11,352 bases of DNA, taken from the IMG/VR virus record IMGVR_UViG_2648501338_000011. One strand, written 5' to 3'. Position numbers and translations under genes: made by a program. How positions within the stretch are numbered: the first letter of the stretch is position 1; the number at the start of each line of letters is the position of its first letter. A model generated the notes under the pieces. It had not been told where the DNA came from. It ran no database searches and was given only the letters and a program-made list of their open reading frames with translations. The DNA comes from a virus (lineage: Duplodnaviria > Heunggongvirae > Uroviricota > Caudoviricetes). Shown one piece after another: positions 1 to 11,068 of the stretch.

Positions 1-443
1 CCGACACAGCCGTACTGCCCTTTGCTCAGGTCAGCCCTCGGATGATTCAGCGTACTCATATCCTGCACATCATGCAGACAGTGGTCAGCCGGAATAATAT
101 CGTTATATCTGCAGGCAGCCCCGCCCGGCGTCACTGTACTGCGGCGCGCCAGCTGTTTAATGCGCGGATCCGGAGCATCGTATGAATCCGGCAGCGGAAG
201 CCCTTCACCGTAAGCCATGGCATTGGACTGCCCGGCCAGTACGATGACGTAGTACCAATCCGGCTCAGATGAAGGGCCGACCTGTGGCTCTCCTTCAATA
301 GCCACCGCCTGCATCAGTGTGTACGGCGTAATGGCAACCGGTCCGCCGTATGGCTGCCAGCCCTCTTTCAGTTTGTGTGTCAGCTTTTCCGCAAGGTCTG
401 ACGGCGACGCCGCCCTGACAACATCGTAATGTTTAATCGACAT
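1..443 (-). CDS. nanS: Prophage sialate O-acetylesterase (NanS-p-like), N-terminal part; CDS continues beyond the window start
   Basis: ATG at 443..441 preceded by GGGAG SD. Translation MSIKHYDVVRAASPSDLAEKL... (DUF1737-like N-terminus) followed by VIVLAGQSNAMAYGEGLPLP, the GQSN motif typical of the SGNH/SASA sialate O-acetylesterase family. No stop within the window. Confidence 0.8.
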   Translation of the reverse strand, partial: MSIKHYDVVRAASPSDLAEKLTHKLKEGWQPYGGPVAITPYTLMQAVAIEGEPQVGPSSEPDWYYVIVLAGQSNAMAYGEGLPLPDSYDAPDPRIKQLARRSTVTPGGAACRYNDIIPADHCLHDVQDMSTLNHPRADLSKGQYGCV

Positions 444-529
444 CGAATTTCTCCCGTGTAGAGGAACAGAGTTAAAAAGCCGGAAGCGGAATCAAATCAC
501 AGGATGACCATCTGCCAGTGGCAGGTCAT

Positions 530-556
530 AAAAAAAAGGCTGCGCAATGCGCAGCC
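530..556 (-). terminator. Rho-independent terminator (8-bp GC-rich stem GGCTGCGC/GCGCAGCC, 3-nt loop, followed by T8 on the minus strand)
   Basis: Perfect inverted repeat 538..556 adjacent to an A8 run 530..537 (T8 on the minus strand). A second imperfect hairpin lies immediately next to it at 504..529. Confidence 0.5.
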
Positions 557-985
557 AGAACTCACAAGGAAAATGATAAAAGGAATAACACTAGTGATGT
601 ACGCATGGCGCCTCCCGCTAAGTTCTGCAATGATCAAACAGAACTCGCTACGTGCCCTTAAAACTCGATCATTTAGCCCCTCCAAGGAGGATTCACCATG
701 CGGTTGATTTTTTAATAAACAGTAAACAAAAAAGTCAAGAATTATTCATTCTGTTCTTTCATCATCGGCCACAGCAATACCACAATGCCGCAGACCAGAG
801 CGCCATCAGTCAGTACCAACATTATCCTGCTGGTGAAATCCATCATCACCATCACTAAAAGCAGGATCACAACAGCAAGCAGACACAGTTTATAAAACAA
901 TGTTCAGAAAACGCATTCAGCATGCCTAAGGTTCTATTCCTACGAATAGCCAACTTGCAACTTGAAATATTATTTATGCAGCCAA

Positions 986-1702
986 TTAAATTCTGGTCCT
1001 TACAATATCAACCTGAAGATTCTTATCTTGTGCTGATTGATAAATGACAAACCTTTTACTACCTGCATTGAAAGAAGTAGACAAAACCAGACAATTATCA
1101 TAACGAGCAAGAACATAATACCAACCATCATTATAATTAATCATTTCATATTCTTTCTTAAACTGTGGTTTGTAATATCCTGTCAGAAATGAAAAAAGCC
1201 AAAAATATGCCACAAAAGCAATCATCACAATCTCAAAAAAATGTTTTTTTATAAATGGCTTATCATAGAAGCATGATACCGATAAAAATCGCCCATAAGA
1301 TCTTATCGAAATTGTGACCGCCAGCGCAATCGCTGCTGACAGTAGCAAAAGAGGTACCTGAATCTTCTGTCTCAATATAGAAAACTCAATAATTGCCGGC
1401 ACAAACAATAATTCCACAGCAAAATAAAGGCGAAATACATTTAGCTCTTGCATAGAATGTTTTCTTTTCACTGCGAAAAAGAATACAACACCAATACCCC
1501 AACCGATAAGAAATATAGCAATGACGATAACTGCAAAAAATAAACTTCTGGCAACATCATCAACACCTGCACCTACAATCCACCATGGGAAGCCGTAGTA
1601 AAAAGAAGTACCCCATCCATAGAAATAAGCACTCCCCCATCCAAGGCATCCCATGTAGGCAATAAAAAGTGAAGAACTCCTGAGCAGCGCACCATCCTTC
1701 AT
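986..1702 (-). CDS. Hypothetical low-GC integral membrane protein (about 5 predicted TM segments plus a roughly 55-aa soluble C-terminal tail)
   Basis: Long minus-strand ORF, strongly hydrophobic with Trp/Gly/Tyr-rich N-terminal region; AT-rich codon usage unlike the flanking genes. Start uncertain: ATG at 1702 (MKDGALL...) preferred, alternatives at 1729 and 1744. No family recognised. Confidence 0.55.
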   Translation of the reverse strand: MKDGALLRSSSLFIAYMGCLGWGSAYFYGWGTSFYYGFPWWIVGAGVDDVARSLFFAVIVIAIFLIGWGIGVVFFFAVKRKHSMQELNVFRLYFAVELLFVPAIIEFSILRQKIQVPLLLLSAAIALAVTISIRSYGRFLSVSCFYDKPFIKKHFFEIVMIAFVAYFWLFSFLTGYYKPQFKKEYEMINYNDGWYYVLARYDNCLVLSTSFNAGSKRFVIYQSAQDKNLQVDIVRTRI

Positions 1703-1842
1703 AACCACCCCAATACAAGATGATAACATTGGCTTACAACTCATAACAAAAGCAATTCAATGCCGTCAAGAGGTTACAGGCTAAAAAAACTCTATTACAT
1801 AGCAGCCAGCATGTTTACCGTACAAGTACAACTCAGGGCATA

Positions 1843-1868
1843 AAAAAAACCCACTCGGCAGCGGGTTT
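1843..1868 (-). terminator. Rho-independent terminator about 45 nt downstream of the Q-like gene stop
   Basis: Minus-strand reading AACCCGCTGCCGAGTGGGTT hairpin followed by TTTTTTTT; an A8 run on the other side makes it potentially bidirectional. Confidence 0.6.
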
Positions 1869-1913
1869 ATACATTTTTTACAACATACCAAATTTGCATG
1901 AAGTATATGGCTT

Positions 1914-2603
1914 TTAATCCAGTTTTGCAATATTTTGCTGTAAAAATGCTGCCTTTTGTTTTGAACGTGTTCTCGTCACAAGCAATAAAGCATCACTATC
2001 AAGCTGTAGAAAAATGTGCTTCATTGCAACCCAGCGTTCAGTAAATGTCTCGGACCAGTTTTTTGTTGTCACTCCCACCAATGATGCCAGTGTCTGGTAT
2101 TCATAGGCCTCACGCCCTGCAAGTTCGCTCTTCACATCCTGTGCAGCCAGCCAGATTAACGTCTTCAGGCGATCCAGTGTCTTACCTGCAATTTTTCTGT
2201 TACTTAACAAATCTTTAAACTCGCTCCATGCCCATTGCGTTATGGTGACCTGATGCCCCCATCGAACGCTTTCGCTGTAACACCAAAGCAACCATGCTTT
2301 CTGATGTTCATCGAGAGACAAAACCGCGCGGCGCCATGAAGAGGTTGAGAATTCAACCGGGCTGACCAAAGCAATGGATGAACCTTTTGCGTACGACTGC
2401 TTACCGGAAGTCGGCGTATTATCCAGCGTAATCATCTTGCCAGTTACCACATCCAGAATGCGCGGCTTCTTTCGTTTGTATGTACCAGTATCAAATTGTG
2501 CATGCTCCTGCCAGGCTTCGAGCTGGCCTTTCGTTGCTCCGTTCAAGTCAGCAGTAGCTGCCATAAGTTGCTCACGAACATACTGTAAATATTGGGTATT
2601 CAT
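1914..2603 (-). CDS. Late-gene antiterminator Q-like protein (non-lambda Q type)
   Basis: 229-aa ORF starting MNTQYLQYVREQL at ATG 2603 (AAAGGA SD upstream; the track's longer ORF begins at a GTG with no SD). It occupies the Q position (end of the nin operon, directly followed by a strong terminator). No similarity to the lambda Q zinc-finger sequence; assignment is by position and recollection of Q-like prophage proteins. Confidence 0.6.
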   Translation of the reverse strand: MNTQYLQYVREQLMAATADLNGATKGQLEAWQEHAQFDTGTYKRKKPRILDVVTGKMITLDNTPTSGKQSYAKGSSIALVSPVEFSTSSWRRAVLSLDEHQKAWLLWCYSESVRWGHQVTITQWAWSEFKDLLSNRKIAGKTLDRLKTLIWLAAQDVKSELAGREAYEYQTLASLVGVTTKNWSETFTERWVAMKHIFLQLDSDALLLVTRTRSKQKAAFLQQNIAKLD

Positions 2604-3076
2604 GCAGTAAATCCTTTCTATATTTTGGCATAATTCTTCAACATTCGGTAATCGTTCAAAACCGAATCGGGGAAACGACATAAGCACAGGAGCCCCCAGC
2701 GACAGCGAAGGAGTTCTGATATATAAGACTCAGACATCATTCATTCCCCGGTTCTCCAATATCTGTTTCACTCATCATCCATAACTACCTGTAATTGCCC
2801 CCCTTTTTTTGTAACAGTTCTTATATTGCTATATAGAATAGCCATTACTAATGCATTTAAATTTAATAAAATAAAAATTATAAAAAACATAAAACACCAC
2901 GCAAACACACTTAATAAAAACACCGTTACATTAAAAGATAATAAAACCGCAATAAAAAACGAATAAATCAATTGTCTCACGCAATTATAAAACATCATAT
3001 TGATTACGCACCTTGTATTACAAACTCATGTATGTAAAATACGCGCACCATTCAAAAAAAAGGAAGACAATAACAT
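2604..3076. promoter_or_regulatory. Very AT-rich intergenic region upstream of lpxR, divergent from the Q start; probable promoter/H-NS-type silenced regulatory region
   Basis: About 75-80% A+T over roughly 300 bp with multiple A/T tracts. No specific promoter pinned down. Confidence 0.3.
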
Positions 3077-4036
3077 ATGAAAAAAAGTGTCATCGCTGGC
3101 GTCTTTATTGCTCTGTCATTTACCACGTGTTCAGCTATCGCGAACAGCCTTGCATTATCATTAGCAAATGATGATGCAGGGAAGTTTCAACCAATACTTA
3201 ATGATATTTATGGCAATAAACATGAAAACAGAGATGATTACTCACAAGGCTTATTTCTGGGATATAGCCACGATATCTCAGACTCGAGCCAATTATCTCT
3301 CCATATTGCGCAAGATATTTACTCTCCATCAGGCAGTAATAAAAGACACAACACAGCTGTAACTGGAGACAGAGCTTTTAGTGCATACACTCACACTGGT
3401 ATTGAATGGAACTCCCTTGCGAATGACTGGATTCGCTATCGATTAGGTACTGACATAGGTGTTGTTGGCCCCGACGCAGGCGGTCAGAAAGTACAAAATA
3501 AAGCTCATGAGATTATTGGGGCAGAAAAATATCATGCATGGGATGATCAAATAGAGAATCGCTACGGTTATACTGTAAAAGGGATGCTATCCATGACACC
3601 AAGTATGGATATTTTAGGTGCTAATGTTGGATTATACCCTGAAGTTTCTGCTGTTACTGGAAACTTATTTCAATATGTAGCATATGGCGCAACCATTGCC
3701 ATTGGTAATGATAAAACCTTCAATTCGGATAATGGCTTTGGTCTGCTGGCTCCCCGTGGTTTAATGCATATGTCCGATACAAGCGGATTCAAATACAAGA
3801 TTTTTGCAGGTATGGAAAGACGAGATGTCAATCGCAACTATACTCTCGAAGGAAAAACAATACAGACGAAACAAACAACAGTATCGCTAAACAAAACTGT
3901 TGATGAATATCAAGTTGGCGCAACAATTGGGTATGCACCTGTAGCCTTCACACTAGCATTTAATAAAGTAACATCAGAATTCAAGACAGGGGATGACTAT
4001 TCATTTATAAATGGAGCAATCACCTTCTTTTTTTAA
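3077..4036 (+). CDS. lpxR: Outer-membrane lipid A 3'-O-deacylase LpxR (prophage moron)
   Basis: 319 aa; signal peptide ending AIA; C-terminal ...ITFFF typical of beta-barrel OMPs. With mature numbering from N23, residues N9, D10, S34 and H122 align with the LpxR catalytic set (N9, D10, T34, H122). Gene is lower GC than the neighbouring nin genes. Confidence 0.85.
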   Translation: MKKSVIAGVFIALSFTTCSAIANSLALSLANDDAGKFQPILNDIYGNKHENRDDYSQGLFLGYSHDISDSSQLSLHIAQDIYSPSGSNKRHNTAVTGDRAFSAYTHTGIEWNSLANDWIRYRLGTDIGVVGPDAGGQKVQNKAHEIIGAEKYHAWDDQIENRYGYTVKGMLSMTPSMDILGANVGLYPEVSAVTGNLFQYVAYGATIAIGNDKTFNSDNGFGLLAPRGLMHMSDTSGFKYKIFAGMERRDVNRNYTLEGKTIQTKQTTVSLNKTVDEYQVGATIGYAPVAFTLAFNKVTSEFKTGDDYSFINGAITFFF

Positions 4037-6897: not shown

Positions 6898-7184
6898 TCA
6901 TCTTTTAACTCCATATACCGCCAATACCCGTTTCATCGCGGCACTCTGGCGACACTCCTTAAAAATCAGGTTCGTGCTCATCTTTCCTTCCCGTTCTTCC
7001 CTAGTAGCGAACCGGTAATACACCGTTCGCCAGACCTTACCTTCGATAACCAGAAGACCTGCCCGTGCCATTTTAGCCGCGGCCTGATTTATGCTGGTTA
7101 CTGTTGCGCCTGTTAACGCGGCAACGTCCGGCGCACAGAAGCTATTATGCGTCCCCAGGTAATGAATAATTGCCTCTTTGCCCG

Positions 7185-7188
<4 letters not shown>
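6898..7188 (-). CDS. ren: Ren
   Basis: 96 aa, MTGKEAIIHYLGTHNSFCAPDVAALTGATVTSINQAAAKMARAG..., matches lambda Ren; start overlaps the P stop. Confidence 0.9.
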
Positions 7189-9514
<2,326 letters not shown>

Positions 9515-9866: not shown

Positions 9867-10190
9867 ATGGATGCACAAACACGCCGCCGCGAACGTCGCG
9901 CAGAGAAACAGGCTCAATGGAAAGCAGCAAATCCCCTGTTGGTTGGGGTAAGCGCTAAACCAGTTAACCGCCCTATTCTCTCGCTGAATCGCAAACCGAA
10001 ATCACGAGTAGAAAGCGCACTGAATCCGATAGACCTTACGGTGCTGGCTGAATACCACGAACAGATTGAAAGCAACCTGCAACGTATTGAGCGCAAGAAT
10101 CATCGAGTTTGGTATAGCAAGCCAGGTGAGTTCGGTATAACTTGTCAAGGAAGACAAAAGGTTAAAGGGGAATCCATTCCATTGGCATGA
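9867..10190 (+). CDS. N: Antitermination protein N
   Basis: 107 aa, MDAQTRRRERRAEKQAQWKAANPLLVGVSAKPVNRPILSLNRKPKSRVESALNPIDLTVLAEYH...; arginine-rich boxB-binding motif; AGGAGA SD. The track ORF from 9735 is an upstream in-frame extension. Confidence 0.95.
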   Translation: MDAQTRRRERRAEKQAQWKAANPLLVGVSAKPVNRPILSLNRKPKSRVESALNPIDLTVLAEYHEQIESNLQRIERKNHRVWYSKPGEFGITCQGRQKVKGESIPLA

Positions 10191-10198
10191 GGTACGTA

Positions 10199-11068
10199 AT
10201 GAAGAAGATTGATTACAAGTCCATACCAAAACCAATAGACTCAGCATCAGAGCGAAAAAAACACAAAAAAGAGGCTGAAAAATTAGCAAATTATATCAGT
10301 TTTATTAGAAACAATGCTCACGGCGATGGCGACAAGAAGTTGCTTTCAGATGCTCGGACCCAAGCGTTCGGTATACTTCGTAAGCAGATGCAATATCGTC
10401 TTCATCCTGGCTACATAATTGAAATTCGCCCTACTGAAAGACAATTGTTCTTATTAAACTCTGTCTTTGACTTTGTAAACGTAGTTGGAGATCTTATCGA
10501 CAGGTCTGTAGATAAGGATCCTGATACAAATAGTTTTCTTCTAACAAATAAAGAATACTTATATGGTAAATTCGGTATAAACGGATGGCAAAAATATGTA
10601 CGCTTCTTACGTGCATTCGTTGATGCGTATAAAAATTCCGACATGATTTATACATATTTGCCTGGTGGTGATAATTGTACGCTTTCGGCAGACAATAGAA
10701 TATTCATACCTGTACTTGGTCTTGGGCTGATTAATGCAGTAAATGAAAAAGATGTTATAATTGTTAAGCAGTGGCGAAAATATGAGGGATATAGATATCT
10801 GCCATGCTTTGATATATTAAAAATACAGAATAAATTCTATGTAAAAATTAAATATAAAGAAGATATTTTCTTCCTCAGAAAAAACAAAGATCTTTTACAA
10901 GAACTTTCTGGTACAATAGATGTCATCTTAGGTTCTAGGTTTATAAAAGAACTGAAAGAAAGCAGGTCTTTCTCTCGTGTAGAGATAAGCGAGTCAGAGT
11001 TATGGGGTATATCAAATAATCCTGTAAACCACGCTCACCAACGAAACCCAAACAAAAAGTGGTCATAA
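10199..11068 (+). CDS. Hypothetical low-GC cytoplasmic protein (289 aa) immediately downstream of N
   Basis: ATG at 10199 preceded by GAGGT SD (the track start at 10187 overlaps the N stop). Lys/Arg-rich, no TM segments, A+T-rich codon usage contrasting with N. No family recognised. Confidence 0.6.
   Translation: MKKIDYKSIPKPIDSASERKKHKKEAEKLANYISFIRNNAHGDGDKKLLSDARTQAFGILRKQMQYRLHPGYIIEIRPTERQLFLLNSVFDFVNVVGDLIDRSVDKDPDTNSFLLTNKEYLYGKFGINGWQKYVRFLRAFVDAYKNSDMIYTYLPGGDNCTLSADNRIFIPVLGLGLINAVNEKDVIIVKQWRKYEGYRYLPCFDILKIQNKFYVKIKYKEDIFFLRKNKDLLQELSGTIDVILGSRFIKELKESRSFSRVEISESELWGISNNPVNHAHQRNPNKKWS

Follow-up and report, generated by a model that had tools for sequence, protein, structure and literature searches.

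The stretch of viral DNA analysed here (IMG/VR record IMGVR_UViG_2648501338_000011, Caudoviricetes; 11,352 nucleotides at its full length, hereafter the window) is the reverse reading of a piece of a phage-434-type prophage, and is 99.7% identical to phage 434 (OL657226.1, 31489-43898) over its full length, bar a deletion of 1047 bp. Its genes and elements follow one another in the order NinG, a Ser/Thr phosphatase, LpxR (on the plus strand), YlcG, the antiterminator Q, a PR'-like promoter, a terminator, an open reading frame (ORF) of 238 codons, a DUF3927 gene, an element resembling a small RNA (sRNA) and an esterase gene (Table 1). The subject of this work is the 238-codon ORF, which is a member of the Pfam family PF27470 (TfpB), or STM1630 family, and which looks like an alternative cargo to stx in the interval between Q and nanS-p. 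An initial annotation, made from the sequence, had placed a low-GC membrane protein of unassignable function here, and the family now has a name.

The minus-strand frame 986-1744 is uninterrupted, as first annotated (238-252 residues), and encodes 252 residues from its first ATG; RefSeq uses the start at 1729. Most homologues are 237-238 residues long. DNA homology with the Citrobacter rodentium copy sets in some 12 nt ahead of the ATG at position 1702, with the Shine-Dalgarno-like element GGGGTGG, and does not extend past the stop codon. The functional unit is therefore likely to start at 1702 and to comprise 238 codons. The GC content is indeed low, at 36.3% against about 46-55% for the flanking phage genes. 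The ratio of nonsynonymous to synonymous substitution rates (dN/dS, Nei-Gojobori) is 0.05-0.08 for pairs with unsaturated synonymous sites and 0.07-0.20 for all other pairs, and 13 columns are invariant in an alignment of 49 sequences that reaches down to about 20% identity. Disruption in close relatives, which the initial annotation had named as an argument against a cargo gene, was not seen in the copies retrieved from IMG/VR: all 80 are full length and encode an identical protein sequence. The low dN/dS, the invariant columns and the intact IMG/VR copies show that this is no chance frame but a real, conserved gene under strong purifying selection. It is also common, with a match in 1197 of 5426 complete E. 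coli genomes; 80% or more of the gene is covered in 766 genomes, and identity reaches 99% or more in 679.

Table 1 Features in and around the cargo interval, with positions in the window
Feature	Position	Strand	Evidence or remark
TfpB/STM1630-family ORF, 238 aa	986-1702	-	ORF list; upstream in-frame ATGs at 1729 (247 aa) and 1744 (252 aa)
Conserved cassette leader	1703-1846	-	homology with lambda-type-Q copies begins at 1846
Candidate sigma-70 promoter	-35 TTGTTA 1749-1744; extended -10 TGtTATCAT 1728-1720	-	consensus scan
Shine-Dalgarno-like GGGGTGG	1711-1705	-	
tR'-type intrinsic terminator	1847-1868	-	ends short PR' transcript; terminator scan; annotated terminator at the equivalent place in phage 434
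PR'-like late promoter	1902-1930	-	overlaps the end of Q; TTGCAA, 17 nt spacer, TATACT; consensus scan
Antiterminator Q (Q82-like)	1914-2603	-	Pfam Phage_antiter_Q, E 1.7e-91; RefSeq and phage 434 annotation
DUF3927/TciB-like small membrane protein, 52 aa	742-900	-	PHROG 1470, E 2.5e-17; RefSeq 'DUF3927 family protein'
STnc100/PasD-like sRNA	527-731	-	Rfam RF02076 over the whole model, E 2.5e-6, 41.4 bits (below the gathering score, 47)
DUF1737/SASA carbohydrate esterase (NanS-p type), 5' part	1-443	-	first gene past the cargo interval; RefSeq and phage 434 annotation
LpxR lipid A 3'-O-deacylase	3077-4036	+	second cargo gene, divergent from Q; Pfam LpxR, E 6.8e-40; equals ECs_0814 in Sakai
76-aa hydrophobic ORF	2768-2998	-	between lpxR and ylcG/Q
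cro-O fusion ORF	7883-8509	-	made by the deletion
Counterpart of the phage 434 LexA-like (cI) repressor coding sequence	8481-9113		
293-aa ORF	10187-11068	+	downstream of N

The ORF follows Q, PR' and tR' and precedes the DUF3927 gene, the sRNA-like element and nanS-p, and the placement of the PR'-like promoter relative to Q and tR' is that of a lambdoid late operon. In the Stx1a phage Stx1_699, stx1AB lies between Q and yjhS/nanS-p, followed by holin and endolysin genes, and the start of its yjhS/nanS-p is 91% identical to positions 1-436 of the window; the ORF thus holds the interval equivalent to stx1AB. The proposal that the gene is cargo in the slot taken by stxAB in Stx phages, ahead of a NanS-p-like esterase, is borne out by this comparison, and the DUF3927 gene and the sRNA had been overlooked in the same interval. 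About half of the identical IMG/VR copies sit behind a lambda-type Q rather than one of the Q82 type, and further E. coli prophages have more divergent homologues (at 68% and 56% identity) in the interval from Q to nanS-p; the initial annotation had proposed to check the distribution at this position. Behind the lambda-type Q, 99% identity to the window starts at 1846, the base after the tR' stem (L099 2456-3900). Since identity sets in exactly past this stem, the terminator marks the recombination joint between the Q/PR' module and the cargo module. The gene was found in three of 50,697 sequenced phage records (the two phage 434 entries and the 2B8 entry), none of them Stx-converting. It thus combines the position of a cargo gene with exchangeability, being rare in phages and present on two Q backbones, and with an atypical GC content of 36%. 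As the homology with C. rodentium is confined to the ribosome-binding site and the ORF, we conclude that the gene travels and functions alone, as a single-gene cassette.

Two elements lie between the ORF and nanS-p. The DUF3927 protein is labelled in PHROGs as 'TciB-like inhibition of cell division or resistance to colicin'. Its gene keeps a constant distance (+802 nt) from the ORF in all but one of the 80 IMG/VR copies of the 434-type cassette; it is degraded in E. albertii (L005) and absent beside divergent homologues. A functional pairing of the two genes as a family-wide trait was rejected, because their linkage is confined to the 434-type cassette. The sRNA-like element ends at a terminator found by scanning (556-538, minus strand). 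Both terminators that had been thought to bracket the ORF were recovered (1868-1847 and 556-538), the downstream one proving to be the 3' end of the sRNA. A 2026 preprint relates STnc100 to PasD1 and PasD2, Hfq-bound sRNAs of enteropathogenic and enterohaemorrhagic E. coli (EPEC and EHEC), and places PasD and STnc100 beside Q, lpxR and the sialic-acid esterase (bioRxiv 10.64898/2026.05.13.724894). A 62-residue ORF, a 'putative membrane protein' of phage 434, overlaps the sRNA-like element.

Elsewhere in the window, the 1047 bp of phage 434 that are missing at the junction at 8288 reach from about codon 30 of cro to the inside of O. Their loss removes nutR, cII, oop and the ori iterons, so the prophage should be incapable of replication or lytic development; its cargo genes are intact despite the deletion. 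Of the two further ORFs listed in Table 1, the one between lpxR and ylcG/Q has about 30% GC and matches PHROG 21286 over its C-terminal 40 residues, and it carries no annotation in RefSeq or in the phage 434 record. The other, downstream of N, matches the HK022 Nun C-terminal peptide over its last 20 residues (PHROG 5632, E 7e-5), and phage 434 labels it 'Nun C-terminal peptide-containing protein'. The holin, endolysin and spanins form a complete, separate lysis cassette, with the holin and endolysin genes downstream of the TfpB-family ORF. A membrane protein encoded in the late operon upstream of holin and endolysin could itself be a holin, antiholin or lysis regulator made only after induction. 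We consider such a late function extremely improbable, given the separate lysis cassette, the lack of the gene in nearly all sequenced lambdoid phages and the presence of homologues at non-phage sites in several bacterial families.

PF27470 is assigned to all 104 phmmer matches of the protein, including the 100% identical one; the assignment comes from a precomputed table, and the Pfam library that was scanned directly is one without this model. RefSeq gives the name 'STM1630 family protein' to one E. coli copy, and the Moraxella 'protein tfpB' matches the profile of the homologues with an E value of 4e-64. The family is small: a set of 1.84 billion proteins gives 55 representatives at the 50% identity level. 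The window protein has its architecture, about 240 residues with an N-terminal AYxYGWGxxxYYGxPWW, an ARSL motif and a C-terminal beta domain, and carries every invariant residue (A25, Y26, W30, G37, W40, A51, R52, S53, L54, G71, G175, Y196 and F218). The protein called 'TfpB' in Acinetobacter baylyi was set aside as an unrelated extension ATPase.

Hydropathy analysis recognises transmembrane (TM) helices TM2-TM5 and an aromatic, Gly-rich N-terminal segment. AlphaFold2, given the 49-sequence alignment, models helices at 3-36, 47-78, 89-111, 116-136 and 155-181, followed by a five-strand C-terminal beta domain at 184-235. They bear out the roughly five hydrophobic segments, aromatic/Gly-rich N-terminus and soluble C-terminal part described at the outset. 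Averaged over the 49 sequences, Lys and Arg number 7.3 in the N-terminus and loops 2-3 and 4-5, and 1.7 in loops 1-2 and 3-4. Under the positive-inside rule this distribution predicts a cytoplasmic N-terminus, five TM helices and a C-terminus on the outside, which would put the C-terminal domain and the most conserved segment, AYxYGWGxxxYYGxPWWxVxxGxDxxARSL, in or beside the periplasm. Within this segment, which spans helix 1 and loop 1-2, the strongly conserved aromatic loop joining the first two helices reads YYGFPWWxVxxGxDxxARSL. The invariant residues are exclusively A, Y, W, G, R, S, L and F, and the alignment has no conserved Asp, Glu, His, Cys or Lys; such an absence of the residue types expected for catalysis argues against an enzyme. 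Reading 'YMGC' as the mark of a lipoprotein was rejected, as there is no lipobox and the Cys is not conserved.

The remote homology search, which the initial annotation had suggested, identified the family and gave no significant fold match in PDB or BFVD. A sequence profile search of PDB returned no match up to E 10, and with Foldseek (best BFVD match E 0.06, best PDB match E 0.5) no solved or predicted viral structure appeared to be related. The non-significant PDB matches were MscS-type proteins with a helix followed by a beta domain, and SH3-like domains (the C-termini of KorB and of an integrase, and Hfq). We call the modelled C-terminal domain of about 55 residues SH3-like as a description, with no claim of homology. 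Pfam scans of the individual family members gave noise, such as bPH_10 (E 0.045) in two of 49.

The gene is not phage-specific, and most contexts of the family are chromosomal or plasmid-borne. Members with a named source come nearly all from Enterobacteriaceae, Pasteurellaceae, Neisseriaceae and Moraxellaceae; the exceptions are two metagenome bins (one of an 'Acinetobacter sp.', and one of a 'Veillonella sp.' with a 100%-identical copy). All copies examined have 35-42% GC. Copies in Enterobacteriaceae lie repeatedly, though not universally, next to acquired genes for virulence or the envelope. The most frequent such neighbour is lpxR, which is linked to the family in three arrangements: (i) in 434-type prophages, lpxR is divergent and on the far side of Q; (ii) on the C. 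rodentium chromosome, lpxR is the immediate neighbour, in divergent orientation and called as two fragments (L039 4863-5823); and (iii) in a further group of E. coli prophages, Q is followed by a methyltransferase gene, the TfpB-like gene, a convergent lpxR and nanS-p (L120-L122 ~6970-7919). In this group pmrD (8187-8505 in L121 and L123) lies next to lpxR in L121, and L123 has pmrD without a called lpxR. The C. rodentium site, with its frmA, MCP and LysR neighbours, is the chromosomal site of sseJ-STM1630-steB in Salmonella. In EHEC, lpxR is reported to be activated by Ler.

Other members adjoin toxin and secretion genes. On plasmids of enterotoxigenic E. coli (ETEC), a 59%-identical member is encoded divergently from eltA-eltB, some 870 bp upstream of that operon, and STb and insertion sequence (IS) elements are nearby (L028-L032, 4358-6714; more than 900 contigs). 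Shigella invasion plasmids (n=106) carry a 57%-identical member, flanked in S. flexneri M90T pWR100 by virA on one side and by the type III secretion region, at its spa40 end, on the other (L128 7001-7717) and annotated in one plasmid record as 'TfpB protein'. A member lies between iroBC and bor in a region of extraintestinal pathogenic E. coli (ExPEC), and another adjoins cdt genes in Glaesserella parasuis, where the outer two ORFs match the CdtA/C Pfam domain and the middle one, without a Pfam match, was called CdtB from a sequence motif only. In a Mesocricetibacter metagenome-assembled genome, the member adjoins an RTX toxin gene with the HlyB and HlyD exporters. Ordinary chromosomal neighbours were found in Neisseria zoodegmatis, in Aggregatibacter (two copies) and in Mannheimia, where dnaK-dnaJ-glnB-TfpB is syntenic in two species.

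These neighbourhoods suggest that the protein could assist adjacent virulence cargo, for example by controlling LpxR activity or the release of a neighbouring toxin. The three lpxR arrangements, the parallel divergence of the two products between the window and C. rodentium (LpxR 75% and the TfpB-like protein 66% identical) and the proximity of eltAB, cdtABC, the RTX operon, sseJ with steB and, in phages, the stx slot are consistent with such help. We nevertheless find it very unlikely: the export routes of the neighbours are unrelated, many copies (Mannheimia, Neisseria, P0046-type) have no such neighbours, the cassette boundaries hug the ORF and so point to autonomous function, and acquired AT-rich genes cluster for non-functional reasons. 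We give equally little credence to a broader proposal, prompted by the same cargo (lpxR and pmrD for lipid A remodelling, the LT, CDT and RTX toxins, the Stx slot, and the effectors SseJ and SteB), in which the family would be an envelope-remodelling factor of host-associated Proteobacteria, co-transferred with virulence cargo by mobile elements. The protein would then adjust the inner membrane's outer leaflet or the handling of lipid A/LPS, and through it LpxR activity or vesicle-mediated toxin release; outer-membrane vesicles carry several of these toxins and form more readily when lipid A is deacylated.

The Salmonella member (L033 4349-7247) lies between SseJ (408 residues) and a SteB-sized ORF of 133 residues, which is followed by frmR and adhC; as this position matches the gap between STM1631 (sseJ) and STM1629 (steB), it is STM1630, flanked by the genes of two effectors of Salmonella pathogenicity island 2 (SPI-2). 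A list of genes affected in regulator mutants that are avirulent includes STM1630, under 'Not in COGs', together with SPI-2 genes (PMC2639726). It was also one of two genes chosen from intra-macrophage RNA sequencing, and is downregulated in macrophages in D23580, a strain of sequence type 313 (ST313) in which its -10 box is disrupted and its promoter inactivated (bioRxiv 10.1101/689075, 10.1101/450098).

Taking these lines together, we tentatively favour, as possible rather than probable, a lysogen-expressed inner-membrane protein of the envelope or of lysogenic conversion that binds a partner at the periplasmic face, with expression from a cassette promoter and by read-through from PR'. The product would reside in the inner membrane, and its aromatic loop and SH3-like domain would bind a membrane-anchored protein or a lipid-linked molecule on the periplasmic side, changing some property of the lysogen's envelope or of its interaction with the host; the lysogen would benefit rather than phage multiplication. 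In the lysogen, transcription would start from a cassette-internal promoter beyond tR', and after induction Q-antiterminated PR' would add to it. The absence of conserved residues of the catalytic type suggests binding; the homologues at non-phage sites (Mannheimia, Aggregatibacter, Neisseria, the ETEC and Shigella plasmids, Salmonella) suggest a benefit to the host rather than the phage; and the linkage to lpxR (once with pmrD) and to bor, along with the STM1630 expression data, suggests the envelope and host theme. If true, such a role would be relevant to many enteric and respiratory pathogens at once.

Several observations weigh against this proposal. The candidate promoter is a weak consensus match, and sites of this kind are no more numerous in the scan than in shuffled sequence. 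The AlphaFold2 model is of moderate confidence (predicted local distance difference test 74.5, predicted template modelling score 0.63), and the orientation of the topology depends on the positive-inside rule alone. Scans of the protein with NCBIfam, PADLOC and Pfam (the library without PF27470) gave no match, and no function was assigned by homology. The virulence-gene neighbours may reflect the clustering of AT-rich acquired DNA rather than function, and the Mannheimia copies have housekeeping neighbours. Deletion of STM1630 left intramacrophage replication unreduced (bioRxiv 10.1101/689075, 10.1101/450098), and the hypermotility of a deletion mutant in one screen (PMC4219756) is absent from the confirmed phenotypes of the follow-up (PMC4534456).

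The main rival is superinfection exclusion or immunity, in which the inner-membrane protein would block the entry of phage DNA, or membrane-targeting colicins or bacteriocins, at the periplasmic face. A polytopic inner-membrane protein encoded by a prophage moron, with conserved parts facing the periplasm, would fit this, as P22 SieA, T4 Imm and HK97 gp15 are exclusion proteins of that kind. Its cassette partner DUF3927 is labelled TciB-like with reference to colicin resistance, and scattered single-gene cassettes on mobile DNA are typical of defence and immunity genes. However, PADLOC gave no match, defence genes were not recognised in any neighbourhood examined, and DUF3927 is unlinked to the divergent homologues. 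Nor do the conserved core site of the Mannheimia copies, the two chromosomal copies of Aggregatibacter and the rarity of the gene among the sequenced phages (three of 50,697 records) favour exclusion, which we judge unlikely.

A second rival involves pilins. TfpB of Moraxella bovis/lacunata, the founding member of PF27470, has 261 residues and aligns over 87% of the length at about 29% identity; like the window protein it carries the aromatic motif near its N-terminus and the YY(I/V)L beta domain at its C-terminus, but it is encoded between pilin genes in a pilin locus and not in a phage. By analogy with pilin-adjacent accessory proteins, the family could serve as an accessory of type IV pili or type II secretion that binds membrane-anchored pilins or pseudopilins at the periplasmic face. 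To our knowledge, all taxa bearing the family have machinery of the type IV pilus type, and the ETEC copy adjoins eltAB, whose product leaves the cell through the type II secretion system. TfpY/TfpZ/FimB-like proteins offer a general likeness, being N-in inner-membrane proteins of about 240 residues with a periplasmic C-terminal domain and with pilin-adjacent genes like Moraxella tfpB. They promote pilus assembly, and consist of three N-terminal TM helices and a periplasmic part made of a mixed sheet, a helix and an antiparallel sheet (PMC11841053). That is, they have three helices and a larger two-sheet domain, whereas the window protein is modelled with five helices and one small five-strand domain of about 55 residues, and our homologue searches gave no sequence relationship between the two. 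Pilin adjacency is moreover confined to Moraxella and was not seen in Pasteurellaceae, Neisseria, Salmonella, Citrobacter or E. coli, and the window contains no pilin gene. We regard a pilus or secretion accessory, the case for which comes almost entirely from the Moraxella locus and the TfpY-like analogy, as quite unlikely, less so than a helper of neighbouring cargo and more so than exclusion.

The gene, its position and its family are already in public databases. The protein has the same sequence (100% identity) as gp68 of phage 434, a 'putative membrane protein' (CPT_434_68, UMO75332.1), and as WP_001302581.1 of strain C325; PHROGs places it in phrog_1521, a family of unknown function, and ECs_0816 of O157:H7 Sakai ('membrane protein', prophage Sp3) is 99.7% identical at the DNA level. 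Literature searches on PF27470 and WP_001302581 found nothing, and those on tciA/tciB and on a phage 434 genome paper found nothing about this gene. To these records we add a likely start codon, which makes the gene 238 codons long, a model of the membrane topology, the edge of the cassette at tR', the evidence of strong purifying selection and a map of contexts that includes the repeated lpxR linkage and the copies at ETEC, Shigella and Salmonella virulence loci. The gene is among the commonest uncharacterised cargo genes of EHEC-type prophages, and it occupies the best-known lambdoid toxin slot.

Compared with known systems, the phage 434, C325 and Sakai copies share the neighbours of the window gene (lpxR, Q, the ORF and lysis genes) and show no substantial difference. 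The window prophage differs from phage 434 by the 1047 bp missing between cro and O. In Sakai Sp3, ECs_0816 adjoins Q (ECs_0815) and lpxR (ECs_0814), whereas another small gene before the holin replaces the part with DUF3927, the sRNA and nanS-p. STM1630 of Salmonella Typhimurium (46% identical, 238 residues) is likewise a low-GC single-gene cassette beside acquired virulence genes but, unlike the window gene, is chromosomal and not prophage-borne; the TfpB family as a whole is mostly found outside phages. With stxAB and other Q-to-lysis cargo, the gene shares its slot and the expected transcription logic, PR' and tR' lying upstream and nanS-p downstream, and differs in its product: stxAB encodes a secreted toxin, the TfpB-family gene an integral membrane protein.

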